Shown one piece after another: positions 3,646-61,205 of a stretch of DNA of 64,000 nt. How positions within the stretch are numbered: the stretch's first letter is position 1; every line of letters begins with the position of its first letter. The translations under genes and the position numbers were made by a program. Under the pieces are notes generated by a model, which did no database searches, was not told where the DNA came from, and saw nothing but the letters and a program-made list of their open reading frames with translations. The DNA is from Mobula hypostoma. Taxonomy: Eukaryota. The stretch is from contig NC_086097.1 of the NCBI RefSeq assembly GCF_963921235.1, positions 58,654,001-58,718,000 of the forward strand, written 5' to 3'.

Positions 3646-4293
3646 CTATGTCTGATCTCCAACATCTACTGTGTACATCAGTGGTCCATTTCTCGTAGCT
3701 ATCCCACTGGTTGTCCAATTGTCTTCTTGGTAATCATGTGCTAGGACATCCTGTCCAACATCAAAGCTCCTTGTTGATTCACTTGGCAACTGGTTGAACT
3801 GTTTATTCTGCACTTCCCTCCATAGATCTGGTTTCAGGAAGGCTATGTGAAATCTCAGATTCCTGCTCATGAACAGCTTTACAGATGTTTGATTTGTCAT
3901 GGCATTAACAGAGTTCGGATACACAAAAAGCAGGTTGTCCATCTTGTGCTGTAGAGAAACGCCCTCCTTGTCTATTGCTTTAATGGACTTTTTGAAGGTT
4001 TGGATAAATCTTTCAGTGAGCCCATTTGTTGATGGGTGGTGAGGAGCTGACTTGAAATATCTGATGCCATTTTTCTTCTTGAATAGTCTGAACTCTTCTG
4101 ACGTGTGTTGTGGTCCGTTGTCACTCTCAATTTGTTCAGGTAAGCAGTTTCTGGTGAAGGTAGTCCTCAGAGCAGAAACAGTCTTTTCTGATGTAGTTGA
4201 ATTCATTGGTATGACCTCCAGCCACTTTGAATGAGCATCCACGGCAATCAGAAACATGGAGTCCATGAATGGCCCAGCATAGTCAATATGCAC
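3646..4293 (-). pseudogene. Gypsy integrase core fragment
   Basis: D-D-E motifs HIDYAGP, SDNGPQ and NGLTER lie in a 215-aa ORF; the rest of pol is disrupted. Confidence 0.9.
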
Positions 4294-4536
4294 TCTTTGC
4301 CATGGTGAAGGCGGCCACTCCCGTGGGTGTAACGGTGTCTGTGGGGGTGTATTTTAGACAGCTTTTGGTCAAGCCTTCAATCTGTCTATCTATTCCTAGC
4401 CTCCACACATAGTTCTGGGCGAGACTCTTCATCTTGACTGTACCCAAGTGTCTTTCGTGCAGATTCTCTAACACTTTGGTGTGCTGTTTAGAGAAACCAT
4501 GACACAAGATCCACACGTCCATGTTCTTTGACATAC

Positions 4537-4909
4537 AGACAATAGACAATAGACAATAGGTGCAGGAGTAGGCCATTCGGCTCTTCGAGTCAGCACCGCC
4601 ATTCACTGTGATCATGGCTAATCATCCACAATCAGTACCCTGTTCCTACCTTATCCCCATAACCTTTGATTCCACTATCTTTAAGAGCTCTATCCATCTC
4701 TTTTTTGAAAGCATCCAGAGGCTTGGCCTCCACAGCCTTCTGGGGCAGAGCATTCCATATATCCACCACTCTCTGGGTGAAAAAGTTTTTCCTCAACTCC
4801 GTTCTAAATGGCCTACCCCTAATTCTTAAACTGTGGCCTCTGGTTCTGGACTCACCCATCAGCAGGAACATGCTTCCTGCCTGCAGCATGTCCAATCCCT
4901 TAATAATCT
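4537..4909 (-). mobile_element. 5'-truncated CR1 LINE inserted into Gypsy pol
   Basis: ORF2 C-terminus SRTRGHSLRIRGRPFRTELRKNFFTQRVV; (AGACAAT)3 tail at 4537-4557; Gypsy sequence on both sides. Confidence 0.93.
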
Positions 4910-7900
4910 CATCTCACTGAGAACTCTGGAGATATAGGATTACCTAGAGCTGGCCATCCTTGCATGGTGATGTCATAGGCTTTTGACAATGTCAGGTCAT
5001 TCCTTGTTTCTCTTTGTGCATCAGAATTTGTTAGTGGCATCTGGTCCACCAGTGCTGTGTGAAACACTTCTGCTGGGTCACAGTATGAAGATTTTTCTTC
5101 TTCAGTTGCCAGCAGTGGAAGACATGACAAGCCATCAGCATTGCTGTGTTGTCTGGTACCCTTGAACTTGATGCCAGAAGAGTTAGCTCCTAGGAATAAT
5201 GTCCAATGTTCAGACCAGGTAGCAGATGTCACTGGGATTTCCTTTCTGGGATTGAAAATGGAAACAAGGAGCTGGTGGTCTGTCACTAGAGTAAACTTTT
5301 GTCCGTAGAGTTAATGGTAGAATTTCTTTATTTCCCATACTAGACTAAGGGCCTCTCAGTCAATCTGTGTGTAGTTCTGTTCTGTACTCGTCAGTGACTT
5401 TGAAACAAATACTTTCCGACGTTCAGATCCATCTTTCATAGTGTGTTGCAAAACAGTTCCAATGCCACAAGGGGAGGCATTGCACACCAGTCTGATGGGC
5501 GGAGATGGGTCATAATGGGTGAACAGTTCATCGGATGTTATTAGTCTCTATGTTTCCTTGAATGCTCTTTCACATTTTTCTGACCATTACCACTTGCTCC
5601 TGTCTGTAGCAGTGCATTCAATGGGTGCATGACTGTAGCAATGTTAGGGAGAAACCAGTGGTAGTAGTTTACCAGGCACAAGTATGAGCTGAGTTGTGAC
5701 ACATTTTCTGGTTTGAGTGCCTGCAGCGCTGCTTCAAATCTTCTCTTGTGACTTATGTAAGCCATGCTTGTCAAAGACAAGTCCACAATATGAGATTTCA
5801 TTCTTGAAAAGCTCATATTTCTCTCTCTTTGCATGCAGACCATACTCACTCAGCCTGGTAAGCACTTTACCAAGATTCCGGAGGTGTTCTTTATCACTCT
5901 TGCCAGTCACGATGATGCCATCAATGTGACATTGTGTTCCTGGGATATCTTGGAGCACTTGGTCCATTGCTCTTTGCCAAATTGCTGGAGCAGACGTGAT
6001 ACCATAGATGAGACAATTATACTGGAAGTGTTGATCATGAGGAACTTTGTACTTGACTCCTTGATCTCCATTTGTAAATAGGCTTATCTGCCTATCTTTG
6101 AAAGCCTCTCCCCTCCTGCCAAAGATGCAGAAATGATTTTTGTTTGTGGCAGGGGATGCTGCACAATATGCAGCACAGGGTTGATGCTCACTTTGAAGTG
6201 CCCACACATGCGACAGCTCTGGTCTTCTCTTTCTTGATACCGGGTCAATGGGCAAGGCCCAATCTCGGAGAGAATGCCAAACATCTCCAAGCTCTGAAGT
6301 TCAGCATCCACTTTAGGACGTAGTGTGTAAGACCATGGATGTGCTTTATATAATCTTGGTGTTGCTGCATTATCCAGTTCAATTCTAGCCTTCATGCTCT
6401 TCAATACACTTTTCAAATGCCTTCACATTAGCATTAAGCAACTGTGACAGTCTCTGGTTAGTGCTACAGCTTGGGCTGCAGTTGCCTATTGATGACACAT
6501 TGAGATCTTTGATTGTCTGCCAGTCTCGTTGGATTTTTCTTGACCATTCACGTCTGAAAAGTGCTAGCCCTCCACTTTGCAACTCATGAAGCTCTAACTG
6601 CTGTGTTTGGCTCTGTACGTCACATTCACTTTCAGTTTTGCCTTTGGGAGACACTTTTTTTGTCCTTAGTATCATCGAGGCCTTTTCTAAAGGTAGCTTA
6701 GAAACCAGTCTGTTGTAGCTAGCTTCTGAAATTATAGACAAAGCTGACCCTGTATCCAGCTCCATTTTCAGTTTTACACCAGACACATATATTGTGATCC
6801 ATATGATTTTATGATCTGTTTCAGTAATGCTGTGCAGTTCCAGGCATTACAACCCACCTTTGTCACACTCTGTGTTGCCTGATTTGGTTTCACATTCAGT
6901 CACTTTGTGCATTTGTTTAGTTTTTGTGTTTGAAACTTTTCACTCTGTGTGTTTTTTCTCTTTGGTTGTGCTTTTTAACTGACTTGCACATTCTCTCTAT
7001 ATGGCCTTGTCTGTGGCACTTTCTGCAGACTTTTTCTTTGAACCAAAGGTCATTTGTATCATGGGAAGATTTGCCAAATCAATAACATTTTTGGCTTTTT
7101 GCACCATTCCAGGACATTTTATGCATTTCACATCCTAAACTCTTTTTCTGTAGTGCTACTGCATACTTTGCTGCAGTCGCTAACAATATTGCAATGGTCA
7201 ATGCCCGTTCTAAGGTTAGGTCACTTTCTGTCAGTAGTCTCTTCTGAGTGCTTTCAATATGCACGTGACATACAAGCTTGTCCCTTAATGCATCAGAAAG
7301 TACATCTCCATAATCCCAGAACTGGGAATTTTGTGCAGTTCTGTGATGCATTCAGAAATGTTTTCATCATTTAACTGATTCCTTATGTTAAATCTAAATC
7401 TCTCAGGTATTACCATCAGTTTAGGGCTCAAATGATCTTGTAAAATTGTAACAATTTCATCATTCTGGTTGCTGGTTTTTCAGGAGTTACTAAGTTGCAT
7501 AAAAGCTTGTATGTTTTAGTACCTATTAAGCTCAGAAGCATGGAGACTTTCTTTTCTTCATCCATGTCATTTGCATTACAATACAGTTCAACCCTCTCAA
7601 TATATAATTCTCAGTCCTCATTAGCACTCTCAAATTTGCCAACTTTCCCGACTAAGGCCATCGTCAGAATTATTTTACTTTAACTTTGCCAGTTGTGCGC
7701 CTTTCAAGGTGCAATTCTACTAAATAAGAAAGGAGTGAGATAGAAAACAAGGAATTATTGACCCATGACCCTAATGTTGGTAGCAGCGAATCTGGCAAAG
7801 GATACAATAACAAAGCACCCTGAAAGGAATAATAGGATTTATCAGAATCACGACTGACTAATTTACTGGTTACCTTTGAGGATATGATTGGCATAGTATG

Positions 7901-12333: not shown

Positions 12334-15300
12334 TAGAAACATAGAAACATAGAAAATAGGTGCAGGAGTAGGCCATTCGGCCCTTCGAGCCTGCACCGCC
12401 ATTTATTATGATCATGGCTGATCATCCAACTCAGAACCCCGCCCCAGTCTTCCCTCCATACCCCCTGACCCCCGTAGCCACAAGGGCCATATCTAACTCC
12501 CTCTTAAATATAGCCAATGAACTGGCCTCAACTGTTTCCTGTGGCAGAGAATTCCACAGATTCACCACTCTCTGTGTGAAGAAGTTTTTCCTAATCTCGG
12601 TCCTAAAAGGCTTCCCCTCTATCCTCAAACTGTGGCCCCTCATTCTGGACTTCCCCAACATCGGGAACAATCTTCCTGCATCTAGCCTGTCCAATCCCTT
12701 TAGGATTTTATACGTTTCAATCAGATCCCCCCTCAATCTTCTAAATTCCAACGAGTATAAGACTAGTTCATCCAGTCTTTCTTCATATGAAAGTCCTGTC
12801 ATCCCAGAAATCAATCTGGTGAACCTTCTTTGTACTCCCTCTAAGGCAAGGATGTCTTTCCTCAGATTAGGGGACCAAAACTGCACACAATACTCCAGGT
12901 GTGGTCTCACCAAGGCCTTGTACAACTGCAGTAGTACCTCCCTGCTCCTGTACTCGAATCCTCTCGCTATAAATGCCAGCATACCATTCACCTTTTTCAC
13001 CGCCTGCTGTACCTGCATGCCCACTTTCAATGACTGGTGTATAATGACACCCAGGTCTCGTTGCACCTCCCCTTTTCCTAATCGGCCACCATTCAGATAA
13101 TAATCTGTTTTCCTATTTTTGCCACCAAAGTGGATAACTTCACATTTATCCACATTAAATTGCATCTGCCATGAATTTGCCCACTCACCCAACCTATCCA
13201 AGTCACCCTGCATCCTCTTAGCATCCTCCTCACAGCTAACACTGCCACCCAGCTTCGTGTCATCCGCAAGCTTGGAGATGCTGCATTTAATTCCCTCATC
13301 CAAGTCATTAATATATATTGTAAACAACTGGGGTCCCAGCACTGAGCCTTGCGGTACCCCACTAGTCACCGTCTGCCATTCTGAAAAGGTCCCGTTTATT
13401 CCCACTCTTTGCTTCCTGTCTGCTAACCAATTCTCCACCCACACCAATACCTTACCCCCAATACCGTGTGCTTTAAGTTTGCACACTAATCTCCTGTGTG
13501 GGACCTTGTCAAAAGCCTTTTGAAAATCCAAATATACCACATCCACTGGTTCTCCCCTATCCACTCTACTAGTTACATCCTCAAAAAATTCTATGAGATT
13601 CGTCAGACATGATTTTCCTTTCACAAATCCATGCTGACTTTGTCCGATCATTTCACCGCTTTCCAAATGTGCTGTTATCACATCCTTGATAACTGACTCC
13701 AGCAGTTTCCCCACCACCAACGTTAGGCTAACCGGTCTATAATTCCCCAGTTTCTCTCTCCCTCCTTTTTTAAAAAGTGGAGTTACATTAGCCACCCTCC
13801 AATTCTCAGGAACTAGTCCAGAATCTAACGAGTTTTGAAAAATTATCACTAATGCATCCACTATTTCTTGGGCTACTTCCTTAAGCGCTCTAGGATGCAG
13901 ACCATCTGCCTTCAATCCCTTCAATTTACCTAACACCACTTCCCTACTAACATGTATTTCGCTCAGTTCCTCCATCTCACTGGACCCTCTGTCCCCTACT
14001 ATTTCTGGAAGATTATTTCTGTCCTCCTTAGTGAAGACAGAACCAAAGTAATTATTCAATTGGTCTGCCATGTCCTTGCTCCCCATAATCAATTCACCTG
14101 TTTCTGTCTGCAGGGGACCTACATTTGTCTTTACCAGTCTTTTCCTTTTTACCTATCTATAAAAGCTTTTACAGTCCGTTTTTATGTTCCCTGCCAGTTT
14201 TCTCTCATAATCTTTTTTCCCCTTCCTAATTAAGCCCTTTGTCCTCCTCTGCTGAACTCTGAATTTCTCCCAGTCCACTTTCTCTGGCTAATTTGTATGC
14301 TTCTTCTTTGGAATTGATACTATCTCTAATTTCTCTTGTCAGCCACGGGTGCACTACCTTCCTTGATTTATTCTTTTGCCAAACTGGGATGAACAATTGT
14401 TGTAGTTCATCCATGCAACCTTTAAATGCTTGCCATTGCATATCCACCGTCAATCCTTTAAGTGTCATTTGCCAGTCTATCTTAGCTAATTCACGTCTCA
14501 TACCTTCAAAGTTACCCCTCTTTAAGTTCAGAACCTTTGTTTCTGAATTAACTATGTCACTCTCCATCTTAATGAAGAATTCCACCATATTATGGTCACT
14601 CTTACACAAGGGGCCTCTCACGACAAGATCGCTAATTAACCCTTCCTCATTGCTCAAAACCCAGTCCAGAATAGCCTGCTCTCTAGTTGGTTCCTCAACA
14701 TGTTGGTTCAAAAAACCATCCCGCATACATTCCAAGAAATCCTCTTCCTCAGCACCTTTACCAATTTGGTTCACCCAATCTACATGTAGATTGAAGTCAC
14801 CCATTATAACTGCTGTTCTTTTATTGCACACATTTCTAATTTCCTGTTTAATACCATCCCCAACCTCACTACTACTGTTAGGTGGCCTGTACACAACTCC
14901 CACCAGCGTCTTCTGCCCCTTAGTGTTACGCAGCTCTACCCATATCGATTCCACATCTTCCCGGCTTATGTCCTTCCTTTCTATTGCGTTAATCTCTTCT
15001 TTAACCAGCAACGCCACCCCACCTCCCCTTCCTTCATGTCTATCCCTCCTGAATATTGATTATCCCTGAACGTTGAGCTCCCATCCCTGGTCACCCTGGA
15101 GCCATGTCTCTGTGATCCCAACTATATCATAATCATTAATAACAATCTGCACTTTCAATTCATCCACCTTATTACGAATGCTCCTTGCATTGACACACAA
15201 AGCCTTCAGGCGCTCTGTTACAACTCTCTTAGCCCTTATACAATTATGTTGAAAAGTGGCCCTTTTTAATGCTTGCCCTGGATTTGTCGGCCTGCCACTT

Positions 15301-15513
15301 TTACTTTTCTCCTTAGTACTTTTTGCTTCTACCCTCACTTTACACCCCTCTGTCTCTCTGCACTGGTTCCCATCCCCCTGTTGTGAACTAACCTCGTCAC
15401 GCCTAGCCTCTTCAATTTGATTCCCACCCCCAACCATTCTAGTTTAAAGTCACCTCAGTAGCCCTCGCTAATCTCCCTGCCAGGATATTGGTCCCCCTAG
15501 GATTCAAGTGTAA
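12334..15513 (-). mobile_element. Young CR1 LINE nested in the older CR1: ORF1 C-terminus, nearly complete ORF2, 3' UTR
   Basis: ORF1 ends LHLNPRGTNILAGRLARATEVTLN*; ORF2 pieces are 15060-15437, 14226-15017 and 12431-14092; (TAGAAACA)n tail from 12334. Confidence 0.96.
12431..14092 (-). pseudogene. CR1 ORF2 reverse transcriptase domain, 553-aa open segment of a disrupted ORF2
   Basis: [45 protein letters not shown] and LADDTKL motifs. Confidence 0.95.
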
Positions 15514-25645: not shown

Positions 25646-28407
25646 TAGGAGCAGAATTAGACCAGTCGGCTCCTTGAATCTCCTTCAACATTCGATCATG
25701 TCTGAATTATTATTCACTCTCAAACCCATTTTCCTGCCTTCTCTCTATAACCTTGGATGGACTTACTAATCAAGAAGCTATCAACCTCCACTTTAAATAT
25801 ATCCAATATCTTGGCCTCCACAGCCATCTATGCTGATAAATACCATAGATTCACCACCCTCTGGTTAACATATTCCTCTTTATCTCTATTTTAAAGGGAT
25901 GGTCTTGTATTCTGAGGCCATGCCCTCTGGTTCAATGCTCTCCCACTATTTAAAACATCCTCTGCACTTCTGTCACAGCAATAGATCACCAATGCAGGAA
26001 AATGTTAGGATATACTTTAGAGTTTAAATGTTACGAACATGCTCAAGGATATATTTAACTAAGAGTTCTGGTTAAAGATGGAAGGTTGCATATTATTACT
26101 CCAAAAACGTGTCACACACATTGATGATGTCATATACATATGATTGACATCGGAAGATCTTTACTTACAGAGAATCATTGGAAATATTCAGTTTAGTTTT
26201 CCAATGGGCACGACTTCAACCAAGAATAGTTTCCATCTTGTTCGAACACATGTAAAATTGATTCTATGTATGCATTGGTACAATAAGGGCTGCAAGTAGA
26301 TTCATTTCTAGGCAAACATTAAAATGCAATGCCCCATTCTTAATCCATTGGCTAGGTTTCTTTAAGATTCAACATTGTGCCTGGTGCCTGCACATGAACC
26401 TACCTGGTCAATCTTCATTGGGGATGCCTGATGCAGCTCATATGCTTTTGTTCCTGCCTGTTGAGCTGCTGCTGATGCTATGTGCAAAGCATTCTTTAGC
26501 AGTTTCAATTTTCCATTTCAAACAGAACACTGTTATAATCCAATAAAATCAATGGATTATGTTCATAAAACCAGACTTTGAAATTTCAGAGTTTTCATCC
26601 AATACACTACAGCATATAACACCTAATCCATGGCATTAATACTCCGGCAAGGATACTTGTGCTTCCAGTAACTACCTGATTTCATTTTAAGGGACTAGTG
26701 TAATTTTTTTTTTACTTTCATGTGCTTACAGCTTAAATATGCAAAACCATAAGTTGCCAATCTACTGGCTGTTCTTGACTGTGCTCTGATATTGGATCTC
26801 TCTGAGCTGAGAAACAATTATTGTATTCATTTCAAAGAAGTGGAACAGCAATGTGCTAAAACCAATTAATAAATATTACACTTATTTCAAGTTAAGATTA
26901 TTTAATGTTTTAATATTTTGAATCTTTATTAAGTGCATTTAAAGGTTTTACATTTTACTTTTTAAATACTTAGTCACCTTCAATATTTTAAAATTGTTTT
27001 TATTGATTTCAATAATTTAAAATATTCTTAAATGTTTCAGAACTTCATAGATTTTCAAAGACATTCATCATTCCTGCCAATTTGACAACCAATTAAGATA
27101 ACAAAGTTTGCTGACAAAGTTCATTCAGTTGTTCCATAAGATGCTATTATGGCATTTGTGATCCTATTTTGCATGAATAGGGTTGGCTTTGTTTGCAGAA
27201 CAAATACAGAATGATAGGGTTGCAAAGTTAACTTCTTGCATTGGTTAGAGGGAAGTCCTGGTAACTTGCTGCATCAGGTTCTAGCCTAAATGTCACTAAT
27301 GATAAGGCTGCACAATGACTTTCAATTGGCTCCCTAGAGCTATTTGAGTGATAGTTATTATAGTTGACAGTGAATAGAAAATATTTATTCACATTGTGAT
27401 AGACCTTTCGATGCAGACAAACACTACGAGGCTTAGAATTATTTAGGGTCATGTGCTTTGATGATTAGCAATAGAGAAGCTTCTCAGAATTTTACAAGAC
27501 TTTTAAGTCTCTGATTGATAAATAGCATTTTAGTATTTATTACTTTCTGACTCATTTATTATATCATATTGATTAAATTAGAGGACTATAATCTACATTT
27601 GATCGCATCATGGTAACATGTGCATTCACACTTAAAACAATTGAATAAAACTAGTTTTTAAAAAAAATCTGTTGGTATCCAATAATAGTGACTGTAAAAG
27701 TACTGAATTGCTATTATAAAGCCACCAGGTCTATTGATGCCCTTTAGGAAGCGAATCTCATAACTTTACCTCCTCTAGACTGTGGGACTCCAGATATACC
27801 ATTTTAATTGAATCTTAAATAGACTAGGGGCAATTAGTTGTTGAAAATTAACATGAGCCTTGTCAGATATCTCCGCATCCTGTGAATGATTAAATTCCAA
27901 AATGACTTTTGTTTCACTGGTTGCCCTTAGGAAATTAAAAAAAACTCAAAATAATTCCTTCCAACAGATGTGTTTTCTGCATTTAAATACTTTATGATCT
28001 TCAATGCTAAATTAAAGTTGGGATTTCAGTCATCTACTCACCTGTTTCTTCAGTGTTTCCTCAACCTCTTCCAAGTGACAATTTTCCTAATGCCAGGTTT
28101 TGTGTTTAGTTATCAGTCGCAGCCTTATCCAGTACATCGATAAGTAGCCAGTCTCAGTAAACAAGTACCTGACGTTATACTTATTGTCCCACAATATACT
28201 CTGCCTTTAAGCTCCTGTGTTATGAACATACTTACCATACAACTATACAGAAGCAATGGGAAATATAATGTTGGATGTTATTCATAACCTGTATCTTCAT
28301 TTACTTTTTTTAAATATACAATCAGCACATATGATAATACTGTTGAAAGCAAAATATAATTTAAACATCCTTAGCAATGAAAAGAATGTTGATGACAAAA
28401 AGACAGC

Positions 28408-28447
28408 ATAGTCCTGATGAAGGTTCTCGGTCCGAAACGTCGACTGT
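28408..28447 (+). ncRNA. Minimal type I hammerhead ribozyme motif, weakened stem II
   Basis: ATAGTC-CTGATGA-A-GGTT-CTCG-GTCC-GAAA-CGTC-GACTGT; it begins a Penelope-derived arm that extends to about 28513. Confidence 0.65.
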
Positions 28448-29172
28448 ACCTCTTCCTATAGATGCTGCCTGGCGTGCTGAGTTCACCAGCATTTTACCAG
28501 TATTTTTTGTGTGATAGGCTTTACAGATGGCCAAATCACATTAATTGCTGGCTGAGAAACTGGGAGATAACATTAACAGAGATTATCTGTCAAGACAAAG
28601 GCAGCAGCTGAACCAAGAGCATGAATCTCCTGTTGCTATGGAATCAGAGAAAGCAACCAGCAATTTTTCAAGGTAGAAACGGAAAAGCTGTAATGAATAA
28701 CTGAGGAACCCTCACTAAATTTTGTACCAGCTATAAACAGTAAAGAGACTTGGGATGCCTCAGGGGGACTAATACTTGTACAAAAATTATAAAGAAAGAG
28801 AAGACCCCCAAGTTCTACTTCTGACTTGGATATAACTGATATAACTTGTTTAAAAGAAATAAGAGTGAAGGTTCAACAGATTTTTGGTGTGTCTCTATTG
28901 TGGACAAACAGAAGCTTGAAAACTTCAGGACATGTATAGTTGATTCCCATTTTAATCCATGGTGAAATAATCATTCAGTAAAGAAATATGTATCCAACTT
29001 CTGCTGAGGTGGATTCAGGTCTCCCATCTCCACTCAGATATCCATGGTGGTAGGTACAAGTTCAAGTTCAAGCTTATTATCATCTGATTGTACATATGTA
29101 CAATAAAACAAAACAGCAAATCACCACAAAGCAAATATTACCTACTGCACACAAAACAAAATATTATCACAA

Positions 29173-29395
29173 ACAACAGGAATTCTGCAGATGCTGGAAA
29201 TTCAAGCAACACACATCAAAGTTGCTGGTGAACGCAGCAGGCCAGGCAGCATCTCTAGGAAGAGGTGCAGTCGACGTTTCAGGCCGAGACCCTTGACGCA
29301 GAGGTGCAGTCCTGACGAAGGGTTTCGGCCTGAAACGTCGACTGCACCTCTTCCTAGAGATGCTGCCTGGCCTGCTGCGTTCACCAGCAACTTTG
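29173..29395. mobile_element. Young palindromic Penelope-derived short element with 15-bp TSD
   Basis: 79-bp arms at 29216-29294 and 29318-29396 with 1 mismatch; TSD AAAATATTATCACAA at 29158-29172 and 29396-29410. Confidence 0.92.
29300..29351 (+). ncRNA. Minimal type I hammerhead ribozyme motif
   Basis: Stem I AGAGGTGCAGTC/GACTGCACCTCT, core CTGACGA(A), stem II GGGT-TTCG-GCCT, GAAA, palindromic ACGT stem III; predicted cut after C29339. Confidence 0.78.
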
Positions 29396-30813
29396 AAAAT
29401 ATTATCACAATAGGTTAACAAAATATAATTCAAAATGAATGTGAAGTGCACAGCACAGGCAAACAGTAAACAGTACAGTAAACAATAAACAGTCCACTGT
29501 CCTAGTGAAAAGACCTTGGTGGTGGCAGGATATTCATTGGTACCACAACCCGAGTGAAGAATCTGTTACCCAGTCTGGCAGTCCTAATCCTGATGCTCCT
29601 GTTCCTTCTTCCTGATAGTAGTGGGTCAGAGAGATTGTGGGATTTCTGCTGGGAATCCTCAGCAATGCTTGGGTCCATATACAACACTCTAGGTAAGTGT
29701 CACAAATAGGTGGGAAGGAGACCCTGGAGTTCCTTCTGATTGCTTTTCCTATTCTCTGTAGGGTTTTGTGGTCTGGTGCCTTGCAGCTTCCGTACCACAC
29801 AATGATGCAGCCAGACAGGATTGCCTTGATGGTGCTCCATAGAAAGTTGCAAGAGTGGGGGTAGGGAGCCTTCAGTGTCTCAATCTCCTTTGAAAGCCTA
29901 TACATTTCTGTGCCTTCTTGACTAGTGAGGAGGTGTTATGGGTCCAGGTTAGATCATCCATTATATGCACACCAGGGAACTTTGTGCTCTTCACTCTCTC
30001 CACGACAGAGCCATTGATGTGCAATGGAAAGTGGTCCACCTGTGCCTTCCTGAAGTCCACAATTGTCTCTTTTGTCTTGTCCAGGTTGTTATTCTCACAC
30101 CATTTGATAAGACCCTCTATCTCCACTCTGTAGGCCAATTCATCATTGTTGCTGATAAGGCCAATCATTGCTGTATCATCAGAGAACCTGATGATGCAGT
30201 TTGGCAGTGCAGTCGTGAGCCAGCCGCGGGCGAGCATACAGCCCTGGGTGGCACCAGTGCTCAGCGTGATGGAGCTTGAGATATTGCTGCCAGCTTGGAC
30301 CGACTGTTGTCAAGCAGTCCAATATGCAGTTACAGAGAGGGATGTTGAGTCCCAACAAGGATAGTTTACACAGCAGCCTCTGGGAGATGATCATGTTAAA
30401 TACAAATCTGAAATCGATGAACAACATCCTAGCATTTTCTAGGTGGAACAGGACAGAGTTGAGGGCCGAGGCTATGGCTTCATGCGTGAACCTGTTTAAG
30501 TAGCCAATGAACTGGAAAGGGTCAACGTAGCTGGAAGGTGGGATTTTATTTGATCTATTACAGCTCCTTAAAACACTGTATGATTTTTGAAGTCAGTGCC
30601 ACTGGGTGGTAATCATTTAAACCAGTTACCATCGGTCTCTTGAACACCCTGGGATGGCAATGGCTGATTTGAAGCCTTCAGGGGCAGTGAACCATTGCAA
30701 AGAGGTGTTAAAGATACCTATAAAGACCTCTGTTAGCTGGACCATCCAATCCCTCAGCACTTGACCAGGTATGTTGCCTGGCTCCACAACTTTATGTGGG
30801 TTTACCCTGGCTA

Positions 30814-31953
30814 AGCTCATCTCCAAACTCCACCAGCTAGGCCTCAGCTCATCACTCTGCAACTGGGACCTGAATTTCTTGTCAGAGCGTTCACAGGTAG
30901 CGAGACTGGGTCCTCACCTGTCCTCCACTACTATCCTGAACACTGGTACACCACAAGGTTTTGTATTGAGTCCCATACTCTACTCCCTCTTCACTTACAA
31001 CTGTGTACCTGCATTTAACACCAATACTATTGTCAAATTCACATACGACACAACAGTGATCGGGTTGATCTCCAACAGAGACAAATCAGCGTACAGAGTG
31101 GAGGTACAGAACTTAGTGAGCTGGTGCTCAGAGAACAACCTGTCTCTTAATACAGCAAAAACTAGGGAGCTAATTATCAATTTTGGAAAGTCACGGGATG
31201 ACGAGTATGCTCTAGTCTACATTAACAGAGACATAGTGGAGAGAGTGTCCAGTTTCAGTTTTCTGGGAATACATATCTGAGAAGACCTCACCTGGTCCAC
31301 TAACACCACAACAATAGCTAAGAAAGCACAGCAACGCTTGTTTTTCCTCAGGACGGTGAAGAAAGCTGGTTTACCTGAACAGATGCTGGTGACCTTTTAC
31401 CGCTGCATCATAGAGAGCATCTTAACATACTGCATCTCTGTGTGGTATCTCAGTTGTACAGCAGCTGATAGGAAAGCACTTCAGCAGGTCATCTCTAGTG
31501 CACAAGTCATCGGGACATAGCTCCCAGCCTGGAGGACACCTACGGCTCACGTTGCCTAAGGAAAGCTACAAGCATCTGTAAGTACAACACACACCCATGC
31601 AATCATCTGTTTGAACTTCTTCCATCTGGCAGATGTTATAAGATTTTCTATGCCCTCACTTCCAGACTGAAAAATAGTTTTTTCCCCAGAGCTATAATTG
31701 CTCTGAACCAATCGATCAAGCATCATCCAGAAATTTGTTACATTGCTACTTTAATACTGGTTTTGTGGCTGTCATGCATCTGAGTTGTGCTTTTTGCTGC
31801 TGGACCTTGCTTGTACTGGCTGGTTACTTGATTTATTTATCGTTTATTTATTTTATTTGTCTTATAGCATTGAGTATGAGAGTTGCAAACTCATTTTTGC
31901 TGTATTGGTGCATGACAACTGTACTATGCAATGACAATAAAGATATTTCATTT
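30814..31953 (+). mobile_element. Second Rex1/Babar-family LINE, 5'-truncated, nested in opposite orientation
   Basis: [32 protein letters not shown]; the 3' end is AATAAAGATATTTCATTTC; CTA occurs at both junctions. Confidence 0.92.
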
Positions 31954-34799
31954 CTAGGATCCTCCTCACCTTAGCCGTGGCCAGACAGTGTGCCTGTTTC
32001 CCAGGGGGAGAGGGGGGCTTTCCTTGATGTCACATCATTCACTGCGAATCGGGAAAAAAATACCAATATATGAGCAGATTGTCCCTGTTCAAATGGGACT
32101 TAATAACTTTTGATCTGGTGATTAATAAAATAAAATATGACTTTCATTTCACAGTGCTCAGTTCAGCTCTAAATATTGCTTTATTGCTTCTCCTGTATAT
32201 TTGAAATCGATTGTTTTTGCCTGGGGCTACTTCACAAAGAGAAAAACAAACTTGTGCAACACATGGAGAAAAAAATACATAATGAACTAGATTTTAGGAA
32301 GTGTACCCTTCTTCTTTATCACACTCCTTCAAGCTGAAATCAATATAAATGTATGTGCAGTATCTTTGTATTTATGCAGATGTAGAACAAATATATTAAG
32401 CAAATTGCCCTTTGAAATGCTAATATTAATACAGCTCTAAAATGATTACAATTAACTCTTTCGTATCTATTATTAAGAATTGTTTCAACACATTTTTGGT
32501 TTGGGATAATTAAATGAACTGTCACACATTTTTATTGCACTAAAAAGGTTCTTCCTATATTCTCAATATCTCATGAGTGGTTGCTGATTTCAGCTGGTGT
32601 TATAAAGGAAGCAAGAAATTCTGTTTTTTTCCATTTCTTTCTCCAGTCCTATCAGGGGTGCTAAATTCTGCTTGACTTCCAGTTACCTGGGTGATAGCAT
32701 TCCTCCTGTATCTCATTAAAAGACCATCTTTAAATACAAGATCAGGCAGTAGATGTTCTCTGACTGTTCATCTATTCAGAGTGATACGATTGAGTGTAGG
32801 CCTAGTTTCTTTCAATACTGGGAAAAAATCATTTCCTAAAGACATGAAATATAATTATTTTTTCTTCTCTCCGGGCATGGAAATCAAAAGCCAATTATGG
32901 TAATTGTACAATCCACTTTATTGAGCCTGACTAATTCAACACAGAATAGGTAAGTAAAGCTTGTACCTCCCTGGTCTAACTGACTCAGTACTATTCTAAA
33001 GGCACCAAATGTCTAATGCCCTGAGAAAACAAAAATGTACATTTATAACATGAAGAACAGAATTCAGCCATGTCATTCACAAATCTAACATGCTTGTTTA
33101 GTTTTTTGCATTGGGAGAATATGGAGGTAATAACTTTGAACGGTTGATGTGTGACATTGATCGATTGCAACAAAGCTGCTGCTCCAGATTCCGTGTACAG
33201 TACAGAAATCTTCTGGCAGTCTAAGGAGGCATGCAGTCAATTGTTACGATCAAGATTGAGATTGAATATCTGACCTTTGAAACTGCAAAACTAAATTCAA
33301 AACTGATTCCCAAATTCTCAGGCATTACATGAATAAGAGACAGTCATTCCATAGCTTATTTCAAAGAGAGCTTCACTTGATTGTCTGGTGACCTCTGAAA
33401 GAGATGCAATTTCTCCTCAATGCTGTTTCATCTCTGATTGTTAGCTCCTGAGACCCGAATATACAGCAAATGGGAAGAGAACTGAAATCATTACAGACTT
33501 GAACTAGAATACTGATCAAGTTCCATTAAAGTTTTTTCCATGAATTATCAGATACTGTTATACATTCTTGGCAGGCTTTTGGCTTGTAACATTAAGTGGA
33601 TTGGGGTGAATATGATCAAATATCTGAAAGTACAAATAGAACAAAAGCACAAAAATATATAATCACAAAAATATATAATTACAAAAATGCACCACAGCTT
33701 GTATTTTCTTGTTTCCATGCTTATTATAAAAAAACAGACATTTGCCATGATTTAATTCACTTGATTCATATTCAGCAGGTTTCTTTCTTCTCTGACTGAA
33801 TCTCTCATTCATGGCTGGCTGAAAAATTATAATGCAAAAGTAGCGACAAGTTATCAGTAGTATCCATAACAAACAGCATCCTAGAACAATTAAATGCTAC
33901 AGTGGATCAAAGGAAATTGGATCATTGCTCTCAGCCTGATTTCTGCTATTTTAGCACTGACATTAAACTTTTGGGCTGTTTCCAAGGATGCTCACCAGAA
34001 CTGAGCCATTGCTTCACTTCTGTTGAATTCAAAGAAAATCAGCTACTATGTTATGTTTGCATAGGTGGGGAGCGCTCCCTTTACCCATTTCTAGTGAGCT
34101 CTATATGTACTATAGTTCTTACATAAGGCATGTAGCCTTTTTGTTTTTCAATTGTGTACAATACTTTCTTTACAGATTTCTATTTCATTCTGCAGGTTTG
34201 CTGCCAAATTTATGAAGATTAAGTTAATGGATGGAGTAAACCCTGAAGCACTTTTGGTAACCCCTTAGCTGGCAGACCACAGCTTTTCAAATTTTAGCTC
34301 CAAGCCTTTCAGATGATTTATGTTCTCTGCTTCATCTCACCTTCCTTCATGCAGACATTTCTTGAATCCTCCAGGACATAGCATTCTGAGGATAGCTAAT
34401 GTGGAAATGGATGACAAAGAATACTCCCTGAGCCTTTTCAGTTCAGTGACCTTAACCAGCTGGGTGTCGACAGGAGCAAAATAAGATATATTAAAACTAA
34501 GGGTGGAAGAGGCATTTTGAAACAGACCATACAGGATTTGCGGTGCATCATGTAACCTAACTATATCTATGTATTAGTCAGTAAATATAAAAGGAATTAA
34601 GAGCAATTAGATGTTCTCCCTTTGTTTTAACTGTTAACGTACTTAGAGAGAAGTTATATTGTTAGCTTTCTGCTGCAACTGTGAAGTGAAACCAGTGAAC
34701 AAGCTGAGACAAGTTCTGGGGAGGGTGGGGACAGAATAGTATTTATGCTGTTTGAAGTGAAACAGTGCCTTTAAAAGAACTTACAATCTACAGTTTTAT

Positions 34800-36390: not shown

Positions 36391-37394
36391 AGACAAGTTT
36401 TATAAATACTTGTACTAATATTTTTTCAAGAAGGTTTACAGATTCCCTGATGAAGATGGCAGAGTTTGTCCTCAAAACATCAGTTAAAATCGATACCAGT
36501 ACCCAGCTGAAGCCCAATAAGGATTATTCATTTACATAAATTGTTTGTCACCTTTATATGACTAGACTTTAATGACTAAGCTTGGAGAAGAAAGAATGAC
36601 TTATCATTCAAAAGACAATATGCCAATCGTCTAGAGTTAAAAAGCATAAACTTTCACTATGTTTGGTTTAATAATTTTTTCTTCACAATGTAATTAAACT
36701 AAACTCAGCATCAAACACTGAAATACTTGCAAAATATAAAAAGTATGTGTTTGTACTTAAGTGCACTAGTGTCTATCTAATCTAATGGCTTGGATGCTAT
36801 AATTTGTGGCGAGCTTCCATGGTTCTCTCCACATCTCCAGACCTGGTCTGCATTTACCTTTGTCACACCCAGCAGAGGAAGGTGGCCAAATCTTCTGTGG
36901 TGACATCCTGTTTGCAGTCGCATTTCATGTGTGAATAGCAGGTGTTGGTGAGTGTCTGGAAATGGGGATGGGCGGAGGAAATCATGCAATGAGCTCAGAA
37001 GCCCAAGTTATACAGACATAGAACACTTAAAGACAAAAACATGTTCAAATAAACTTTCGTCTCTGAAAAAACTAAGCAAAAGATGAACATGTGCTGTACA
37101 TTCAACCTCATAGTTCTCGTCTACTGGAGTCAATGGGGGGAACCTCAATGGAAGAGAACCAAGTTCAATTAGGAGAGGGTTGTTTGAATAGAATCCTTAC
37201 TGTAATTGCTCAGGGATTGCCTCAACTTAACACTCTTCAACTGGACAAGATGAAGAGGCCAATAGTGGAATGCAGCTGAGTAACCACCAGCAGATAATTA
37301 TCAGCAAACTCTGAGTAAGACATATGGCAATGTGTGAGGGAATGGTCAGTATTTCCACATTCTCTCTCCCCACAGAAAATGACCATCATGCTTT

Positions 37395-37683
37395 TGTTTC
37401 AATTAATCTACTTGCTGAAATACAGCAAGCTGACCAATCCATTCCTTTTCTTTACTGTTACAGGAAGCAGATTCTGCAGTTAAAATTCATTTGATTTTTT
37501 AAAAACTAAATTGAAACAGTGTGAGATGTTATTAATATATATAAATTTATCAAGTATGCTGTACTTTTCATTGCATTTGGAGTATAATAAAAATTTAGCA
37601 AATTTGTGTATTACTGGGGCAATATAGTTGGAACTAGTACTATCAAGATTGAATACATGTGGAGTTCTGCTAACATTAAGCCA
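37395..37683. repeat. Source arm of a local inverted duplication
   Basis: Reverse complement of 38209-38495, with about 16 substitutions and 1 small indel by manual alignment. Confidence 0.95.
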
Positions 37684-37989
37684 ATTGCTTTTTATAAATT
37701 TATGCTGTCGCTATTAAAGCTTTTTATTAGATTTAATCCATTCAAAATCAGATCCTGGAGACAAGTTGTGTGTATATGTAAAAAAAAGAGCTGAAAATGC
37801 TGGAAAACACAGCAGGCCAAGCAGCATCTGTGGAAGGAAAAACTGCCTAACTTGCAGCATTATGCAGGCTCACTCTCTCACTCACCGAGTTAGTCAGCTG
37901 GCTGGCAGTTGCTTTTTCCATACCTTCTCACTTTCCCATCTCAGATGTTTCTCTGATTCTCTCCCACACACTGTTTTTGTTCATTTCTG

Positions 37990-38208: not shown

Positions 38209-38495
38209 TGGCTTAACGTTAGCAGAACTCCACATGTATTCAATCCTGATAGTACTAGTTCCAACTATAATGCCTCAATAATACACAAGTTTTCTAAATT
38301 CTTATTATACTCTAAATGCAATGAAAAGTACAGCATACTTGGTAAATTTATATATATTAATAACATCTCACACTGTTTCAATTTAGCTTAAAAAATCAAG
38401 TGAATTTTAACTGCAGAATCTGCTTCCTGTAACAGTAAAGAAAAGGACTGGATTGGTCAGCTTGCTGTATTTCAACAAGTAGATTGATTGAAGCA
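38209..38495. repeat. Inverted copy of 37395-37683 at the 5' end of the Nimb insertion
   Basis: Direct reverse-complement match of about 94%. Confidence 0.95.
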
Positions 38496-38499
38496 GATT

Positions 38500-39241
38500 C
38501 ATGCTTAGATTCATCCTCAGTTTTAGCAAGTTTAAGGTCTTTTCACTCAAAAAGTCAGCAAGATGTACTTCATGAAGTCCTTCAGTCAGTCACAAGAATT
38601 GCAAATCAGGGAGGTCAGATAAAATTTCTATGGGTTCCAGCACATGTAGGGGTGAAGGGGAATGAGAGGGTAGATGAGTTGGCAAAGAGGGCGTTCAAAG
38701 AAAGAAAATATAGAAATGCATATTAGCATCAGTAAAGCAGAGGTTAAGTGTGTAATCTGGGAAAAAAATCAACCAAATGTGGCAAGAAAGATGGGACAGG
38801 TAGGGGAAAGGGAGGCATTTATATCAAATACAAGAAAGTGTTGCAGCTACTAGGGTAGGTAGTGGATACAGAAGAGAGGAAACTGTGTGGACTAGGTTAA
38901 GGCTGGGGCATTGTGCATTAAACAAAACATTGAAAATGATAGGGAAACACCAGACAGGATTGTGTGAGGAATGTCAGGAAGAAGAATCAGTAGAACATGC
39001 AGTTCTGAGTTGCAGGAAGTATGGGATACAGAGAGAGATGATAAGAATTAATCTAAGGGAATTGGGGGTGCAGGAATTCACATTAAAAGGGTTGTTGGGC
39101 ACGGGTGAGAGAGCACAGGTCAGGGTATTTTTAGCTTTCTTAAGGGGTATAGGTACAGGGTTTTTTTTAATAGGATATGATGGATAAGCAGGAATAGGGC
39201 ACTAGGATGGCCAAAGATGGGAGGATAAAGTGAAGGCTAGG

Positions 39242-60780: not shown

Positions 60781-61205
60781 AAAGGAAGTACTTTTGCAAG
60801 AAATACAAAAGCCTGAAAGCACACATTACAAGGCTGTGATAAAGACTACTGAATGGTCCCCTAGTATGGTAAGGATGAACTCTTGACCTCACATCCTACT
60901 CCATTATGGCCTTGCTGCTTATTGTCTGTCACACTGCACTTCCTCTGTAATTGTACCACTTTATTCTGAATTCTGTCAACACACATCAAAGTTGCTGGTG
61001 AACGCAGCAGGCCAGGCAGCATCTCTAGGAAGAGGTATGTACCAGCAACTTTGATGTGTGTTGCTTGAATTTCCAGCATCTGCAGAATTCCTGTTGTTTC
61101 TGAATTCTGTTATTGTTTTCCCTGGTACTATCTCAATGCAGTGATGTGATGAAATGAAGGATGGCATGCAAAACAAAGATGTTAGCTGATACATATAACG
61201 ATAAT
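60780..61205 (+). mobile_element. Rex1/L2-type 3' fragment hosting a palindromic insert
   Basis: Similar to 51760-52070 and 52230-52420. Confidence 0.7.
60977..61097. mobile_element. Young palindromic Penelope-derived element, centrally deleted, 13-bp TSD
   Basis: 23-bp arms at 60977-60999 and 61041-61063; TSD TTCTGAATTCTGT at 60964-60976 and 61098-61110; identical to the 29173 copy over the shared sequence. Confidence 0.92.

Follow-up and report, generated by a model that had tools for sequence, protein, structure and literature searches.

Introduction

Penelope-like elements (PLEs) are retrotransposons whose insertions carry an inverted 5'-truncated copy and a tail of 30–40 bp at one end, as described in PMC8557442 and PMC8969392, the first of which names the formation of these inverted structures and tails as an open question. 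Among the closest described systems is Pen2a_Av of the rotifer Adineta vaga (Arkhipova et al. 2013, PMC3846280; Craig et al. 2021, PMC8557442), for which PMC3846280 reports an inverted pseudo-LTR (pLTR), a 31-bp tail and target-site duplications (TSDs) of 8–10 bp, with one TSD around the unit. Minimal hammerhead ribozymes (min-HHRs) lie within the pLTRs of metazoan PLEs, also as opposite-strand pairs, and in vitro no cleavage was seen with single minimal hammerheads and only weak cleavage with multimers (Cervera and De la Pena 2014, PMC4209133). In the study of Poseidon PAc from the green anole (Frangieh et al. 2024, PMC11167929), a PLE protein nicks and extends both strands and favours AT-rich DNA, two internal start sites define the tail, and uncleaved RNA is the main substrate. 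Animal non-LTR retrozymes, as outlined in PMC7229834 and by Li et al. (bioRxiv 10.64898/2026.07.22.740005), consist of head-to-tail units that each carry a hammerhead, mostly of canonical form, and give rise to expressed circles.

Here we analyse an insert at positions 29158–29410 of a 64,000-nt stretch of the Mobula hypostoma genome (contig NC_086097.1; the whole stretch is called the window below). Like the units described for Pen2a_Av, the insert has a head-to-head inverted 5'-truncated copy, a one-sided tail and one long putative TSD around the whole unit; it differs from them in that its arms are cut to about 90–120 nt with no coding sequence left. Its tail of 44 nt and putative TSD of 15 bp are somewhat longer than the 30–40 bp and, in the rotifer paper, 8–10 bp cited above, which counts to some degree against assigning the insert to PLEs. 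Its ribozyme motif shares with the min-HHRs of PMC4209133 a type I core, a 4-bp stem I, an unpaired base before stem II and a loop-less palindromic stem III that needs a dimer. It departs from them in a 4-bp stem II with G.U as its closing pair where G10.1-C11.1 is usual, in a stem I that a junction patch extends to 12 bp, and in lying inside a 78-bp hairpin. With the PAc insertions described in PMC11167929, it has in common two tail-defining ends, a putative AT-rich target and copies that span the hammerhead cut site. With animal non-LTR retrozymes it shares its short non-coding make-up, a type I hammerhead, a relation to pLTRs and a long putative TSD, but it is one head-to-head unit with one minimal motif, which by prediction is sequestered.

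Published accounts of PLEs already include both the layout and the ribozyme motif of this insert, and the structure of the insert points to a PLE origin. We consider it highly probable that the insert is a single dead-on-arrival PLE insertion, an ordinary stump. The single locus matters little, being one of very many dead fragments. Two-armed stumps as a class could help explain the inverted structures and tails of PLEs, since a single ray-type genome offers thousands of two-armed junctions to count. In a literature search that left most subscription journals and repeat databases outside its range, no paper was found on this ray repeat family and nothing on two-ended priming in PLEs, and the term 'hammerhead ribozyme' occurred in no elasmobranch paper among the matches listed.

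Two head-to-head arms with a one-sided tail

The 223-nt insert occupies positions 29173–29395, between perfect 15-nt direct repeats at 29158–29172 and 29396–29410 (both on the plus strand). A direct repeat of at least 15 nt arose in none of 300 shuffles of the 1.5-kb region. Inverted arms at 29216–29294 and 29318–29396 are complementary at 78 of 79 positions, the sole mismatch being 29288/29324, and their longest exact inverted match measures 72 nt, compared to at most 20 nt across 300 shuffles. The original prediction had described a 223-bp insert with 15-bp repeats, 79-bp arms and a hammerhead core, and the perfect repeats, the arm pairing and the shuffle controls bear this description out. 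The direct repeats suggest a 15-bp TSD, 87% A+T in its left copy. The borders of the insert are ambiguous by 1–3 nt, as the outer end of the family is also matched by the final base of the right arm and by the final three bases of the left repeat.

The insert is made of two short pieces of the end of an abundant repeat, placed head to head. Its left side holds 44 extra nucleotides (29173–29216, minus strand) that belong to the 3' end of the element and are missing from the other arm, so that the inverted arms are not terminal; we refer to this piece as the tail. It is followed by an inverted 5'-truncated arm at 29217–29294 (minus strand), which ends within the hammerhead core at sense-equivalent position 29318, and no hammerhead core is found on the minus strand of the insert. 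A junction patch at 29295–29307 (plus strand) is composed of 5 nt of unexplained origin and 8 nt complementary to 29344–29351, and with these 8 nt stem I reaches 12 bp in this insert. A sense 5'-truncated arm without a tail completes the insert at 29308–29395 (plus strand), starting at the first base of stem I.

The sense arm opens with a minimal type I hammerhead motif at 29308–29343 on the plus strand. The core consists of CUGACGA at 29312–29318 and GAAA at 29332–29335, with a loop-less palindromic ACGU as stem III; stem I pairs 29308–29311 with 29340–29343 (4 bp), stem II pairs 29320–29323 with 29328–29331 (4 bp), and cleavage is predicted after C29339. These features agree with the earlier assignment to minimal type I hammerheads with a palindromic stem III. 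A structural descriptor had been suggested as a check on the motif, and one that we built and ran over the whole window recovered it at 29308–29343 along with a second motif at 28410–28445, two in all compared to a mean of 0.015 in 200 shuffles. An Rfam search returned seven matches up to E 10, with a hammerhead among none of them.

The connection to PLEs and the origin through RNA, both part of the original prediction, gain support from the inverted 5'-truncated copy, the one-sided tail and the minimal hammerhead. On the coding side, no RT/GIY-YIG gene was linked to this end of the element, which counts against the assignment to PLEs, and the protein matches are host gene models that exonise the repeat. 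The window has 182 ORFs of at least 75 aa, and in the 133 of them run against Pfam no GIY-YIG domain was detected; patterns of PLE protein motifs gave one unconvincing match in six frames of the window, and protein searches with a 41-aa open frame of the tail arm retrieved three Mobula gene models, none with an RT or GIY-YIG domain. A pattern of the hammerhead region occurred in no viral contigs and no metagenomes. A 20-nt arm pattern gave 27 loci, which were dropped as chance, the matches extending over only 20–28 nt.

Further copies in the window

A second two-armed copy of the same family lies at 60964–61110 on the minus strand. Its 121-nt insert lacks a hammerhead and is flanked by 13-bp direct repeats (60964–60976 and 61098–61110, 69% A+T), so that the variable TSD length that had been proposed gains support from the repeats of two copies, 15 bp at one versus 13 bp at the other. 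The tail arm of 57 nt and the other arm of 60 nt each match the 29158–29410 locus exactly. Both inserts have the same outer end and different breakpoints: the tail arm halts at sense-equivalent 29383 and the other arm begins at 29346 in the second copy, compared to 29318 and 29308 in the first. Both also have a tail at one end only, which measures 34 nt here. The copies share the outer end and not the junction, and the ribozyme is an optional part of these stumps.

An older single-arm copy at 28409–28491 (plus strand) is 89% identical over 82 nt and carries its hammerhead core at 28410–28445. Both hammerhead-bearing sense arms in the window start where stem I starts, to within 1 nt, and the edge of stem I is possibly a hotspot for arm truncation. 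A still older relative of the element's end lies at 37798–37836. It is enclosed by a pair of 297-bp inverted repeats (37387–37683 and 38209–38503, 93% identical), possibly a MITE or DNA transposon. A separate abundant repeat, marked by raised contig depth, lies at 29546–29683, 140 nt downstream of the insert, and is not tied to it by direct repeats.

An abundant repeat family in public contigs

The family was surveyed in 4 of 24 public sequencing runs, using contigs only, over a 1,351-nt reference stretch. On this stretch there were 99,860 contigs in run X1 and 59,498 in run X5; a further run, X17, may be RNA, and its contigs lie on the repeat family but miss the flanks of the 29158–29410 locus. 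Summed depth on the insert is at least 10^5-fold above that of the flanks, a depth that is not a copy number. The insert belongs to a very abundant repeat with a shared outer end and many different arm-to-arm joints.

Among the loose ends listed (24 of 1,556), those with unlike flanks cluster at 29170–29171 (309 and 180 contigs in X1, 281 and 191 in X5), with a second cluster at 29205 (192 contigs in X5) or 29209 (7 in X17). The family therefore ends at two positions about 35 nt apart among the loose ends listed. Further loose ends lie before 29307 and 29308 (156 and 211 contigs in X1) and before 29308 in X5 (118 contigs). Upstream of 29307–29308 the contigs of all four runs read pyrimidine-rich letters unlike the linker of the insert, and two Mobula gene models, P0002 and P0004, read the same upstream letters in frame. 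Because these native letters differ from the linker, the 12-bp stem I at 29158–29410 is a product of the junction patch; the family's own stem I is about 4 bp.

Fourteen of the 15 joints listed (of 635) run from arm to arm; the remaining one, 28458–29360, connects the older copy to the insert and was left out. All 14 are different, with 13 distinct left break points, and in two of them (29204–29308 and 29213–29307) one arm is the tail alone. Variable 5' truncation with an adjoining head-to-head inverted copy is thus present in the two window copies and in the contig joints. The hammerhead core is not constant among copies: it is absent at 60964–61110, and is whole in nine of the 14 arm-to-arm joints listed and incomplete in five. 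Ten of the 14 start at 29306–29314, a share biased by the edge of the reference. We rejected this pile-up as proof of a truncation hotspot, as the reference is native only from 29308. Several joints stand at about 3–12 times single-copy depth (for example 139 versus 15 in X1 and 181 versus 15 in X5), so a few junctions recur, which speaks against a reading of every stump as a one-off insertion.

Proposed priming from two nicks and the self-priming alternative

The two arms of the 29158–29410 insert could have formed as follows. The GIY-YIG endonuclease of the element would nick the two strands of an AT-rich target at positions some 15 nt apart, and the reverse transcriptase would prime from each nick on uncleaved RNA. 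The top strand would prime at the tip of the tail, at about 29170–29173, with 3 nt of microhomology, and the bottom strand 44 nt further in, at 29395, with 1 nt of microhomology. Both cDNAs would halt early, one within the hammerhead core and the other at the 5' strand of stem I. The cDNA halted at stem I would snap back through stem I and copy 8 nt, leaving the junction patch, and joining and fill-in of the ends would produce the TSD. The hairpin of such a cDNA end at stem I has a predicted energy of -6.3 kcal/mol, and of -17.0 kcal/mol after extension. The inverted arm and the sense arm both span the hammerhead cut site, so the RNA that templated them was uncut at that point.

In both two-armed copies in the window each arm holds sequence that is missing from its partner, and joints with a tail-only arm occur, so that neither arm can simply have been copied from the other. 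This excludes plain fold-back as the source of the mutual excess, and from it we infer priming from two nicks. Priming from both nicked strands is in our judgement the somewhat likelier route. Against its use of different starts per strand stands the in vitro assay of PAc, which saw no difference between strands in its start sites (PMC11167929).

The main rival keeps the PLE origin and derives the inverted arm from one cDNA or antisense template that primes itself through a hairpin intermediate, followed by trimming and resolution by the endonuclease. Self-priming has been proposed for head-to-head PLE structures in PMC3846280, and PMC8557442 credits the tail to endonuclease resolution. Within the insert, a local snap-back is the best reading of the 8-nt patch, the cDNA end forms the corresponding hairpin, and the arms differ at only 1 of 79 positions, all of which suits self-priming. 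However, fold-back copies only the first cDNA, and here the tail arm lacks 29308–29317 while the other arm lacks the tail. The mutual excess recurs in the copy at 60964–61110, where it amounts to 37 nt and 34 nt, and in two of the joints listed one arm is the tail alone. Self-priming therefore requires extra trimming steps, and we regard it as rather unlikely.

Returning to priming from two nicks, we tentatively propose, at somewhat less than even confidence, that such stumps record PLE integration, with one start at the tail tip and one at the tail base, and that the fold of the hammerhead and not its cleavage sets the stop of the reverse transcriptase. If this is true, the 29158–29410 locus caught the snap-back at stem I as an 8-nt patch.

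Predicted folding of the hammerhead and self-cleavage

The RNA of the insert is predicted to fold into one hairpin of -179.2 kcal/mol (z -22), in which C29339 pairs with 29273 at a probability of 1.0. The energy cost of imposing the hammerhead stems is 43.5 kcal/mol for the full insert compared to 4.0 kcal/mol for an isolated right arm, and in every prefix of the insert RNA tested the probability of stems I and II is 0.000. On these fold predictions the hammerhead would be sequestered in the insert hairpin and would not self-cleave in this context. The end of the junction patch at the cut site was considered as proof of cleavage and rejected, since stem I begins there by geometry.

These predictions bear on a further explanation, in which the palindrome itself makes up a small non-autonomous family, similar to a non-LTR retrozyme: its RNA would cleave itself as a dimer, perhaps become circular, and return to the genome by means of PLE proteins acting in trans. 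An intact core and near-perfect arms would fit such a family, as would the several-fold recurrence of some joints and the second sense hammerhead 900 nt upstream. Non-LTR retrozymes are pLTR-derived and present in the sole chondrichthyan sampled (bioRxiv 10.64898/2026.07.22.740005), and pLTR sequences are enough for mobilisation in trans (PMC3846280). However, the insert has one hammerhead only, single minimal hammerheads failed to cleave in vitro (PMC4209133), and head-to-tail tandem units are absent from 27000–32000. CpG-type changes in the contigs also hit the core and the cut site, at 6–12% of depth compared to 13–16% at one CpG outside, a weak sign of neutral decay of the core, from contigs that in X1 are too deep for a complete count of differences. 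The original prediction had taken the palindrome for a family propagated by self-cleavage; this part of it is not supported, given a junction that differs among copies and is without a hammerhead at 60964–61110, a core predicted to be sequestered, a template that was uncut and the lack of tandems, and we consider such a family improbable. Least probable, and largely refuted, is a DNA MITE or fold-back DNA transposon with a hammerhead-like motif in its terminal inverted repeats by chance: it would supply a short, non-coding sequence with long inverted repeats and flanking direct repeats, but the arms are not terminal (one-sided extensions of 44 nt and 34 nt), the direct repeats of the two copies differ in length (15 versus 13 bp), the position of one end shifts (29217 versus 29207), a single-arm copy exists at 28409–28491, and the motif is the minimal hammerhead of PLEs.

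Age of the insertion and genomic setting

The insertion had been called young, and this stands only loosely, as a second organism at about 2% flank divergence probably carries it too. In X5, which is labelled as another organism, contigs covering 28481–29191 (with 14 other letters and 2 gaps) and 29371–29468 enter the insert by 19 and 25 nt. These overlaps fall below the 31-letter bridging rule of the contig comparison, but X1's own contigs end at the same places. No empty site was seen among the joints listed (15 of 635). From these flank sequences, the insertion probably predates the split between the two organisms.

Stumps of this kind resemble MITEs or retrozymes in annotation, and may also be exonised into gene models. 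The 41-aa open frame of the tail arm is 76–93% identical to three gene models from Mobula hypostoma and M. birostris. These are P0002, P0003 and P0004 (a STARD3NL-like isoform, a CoA synthase and an uncharacterised protein), which take 30–34 aa from the end of the repeat, by either exonisation or gene-model error.

The window is rich in LINE, LTR and RNase H remnants, as judged by Pfam on 133 of its 182 ORFs. On the minus strand, the remnant of a broken LTR retrotransposon lies at 3649–6846 and matches integrase (rve) and RT, and a nearly intact LINE, which we take to be CR1-like, lies at 12434–15443, with RVT_1 in a 573-aa frame and Exo_endo_phos in a 277-aa frame.
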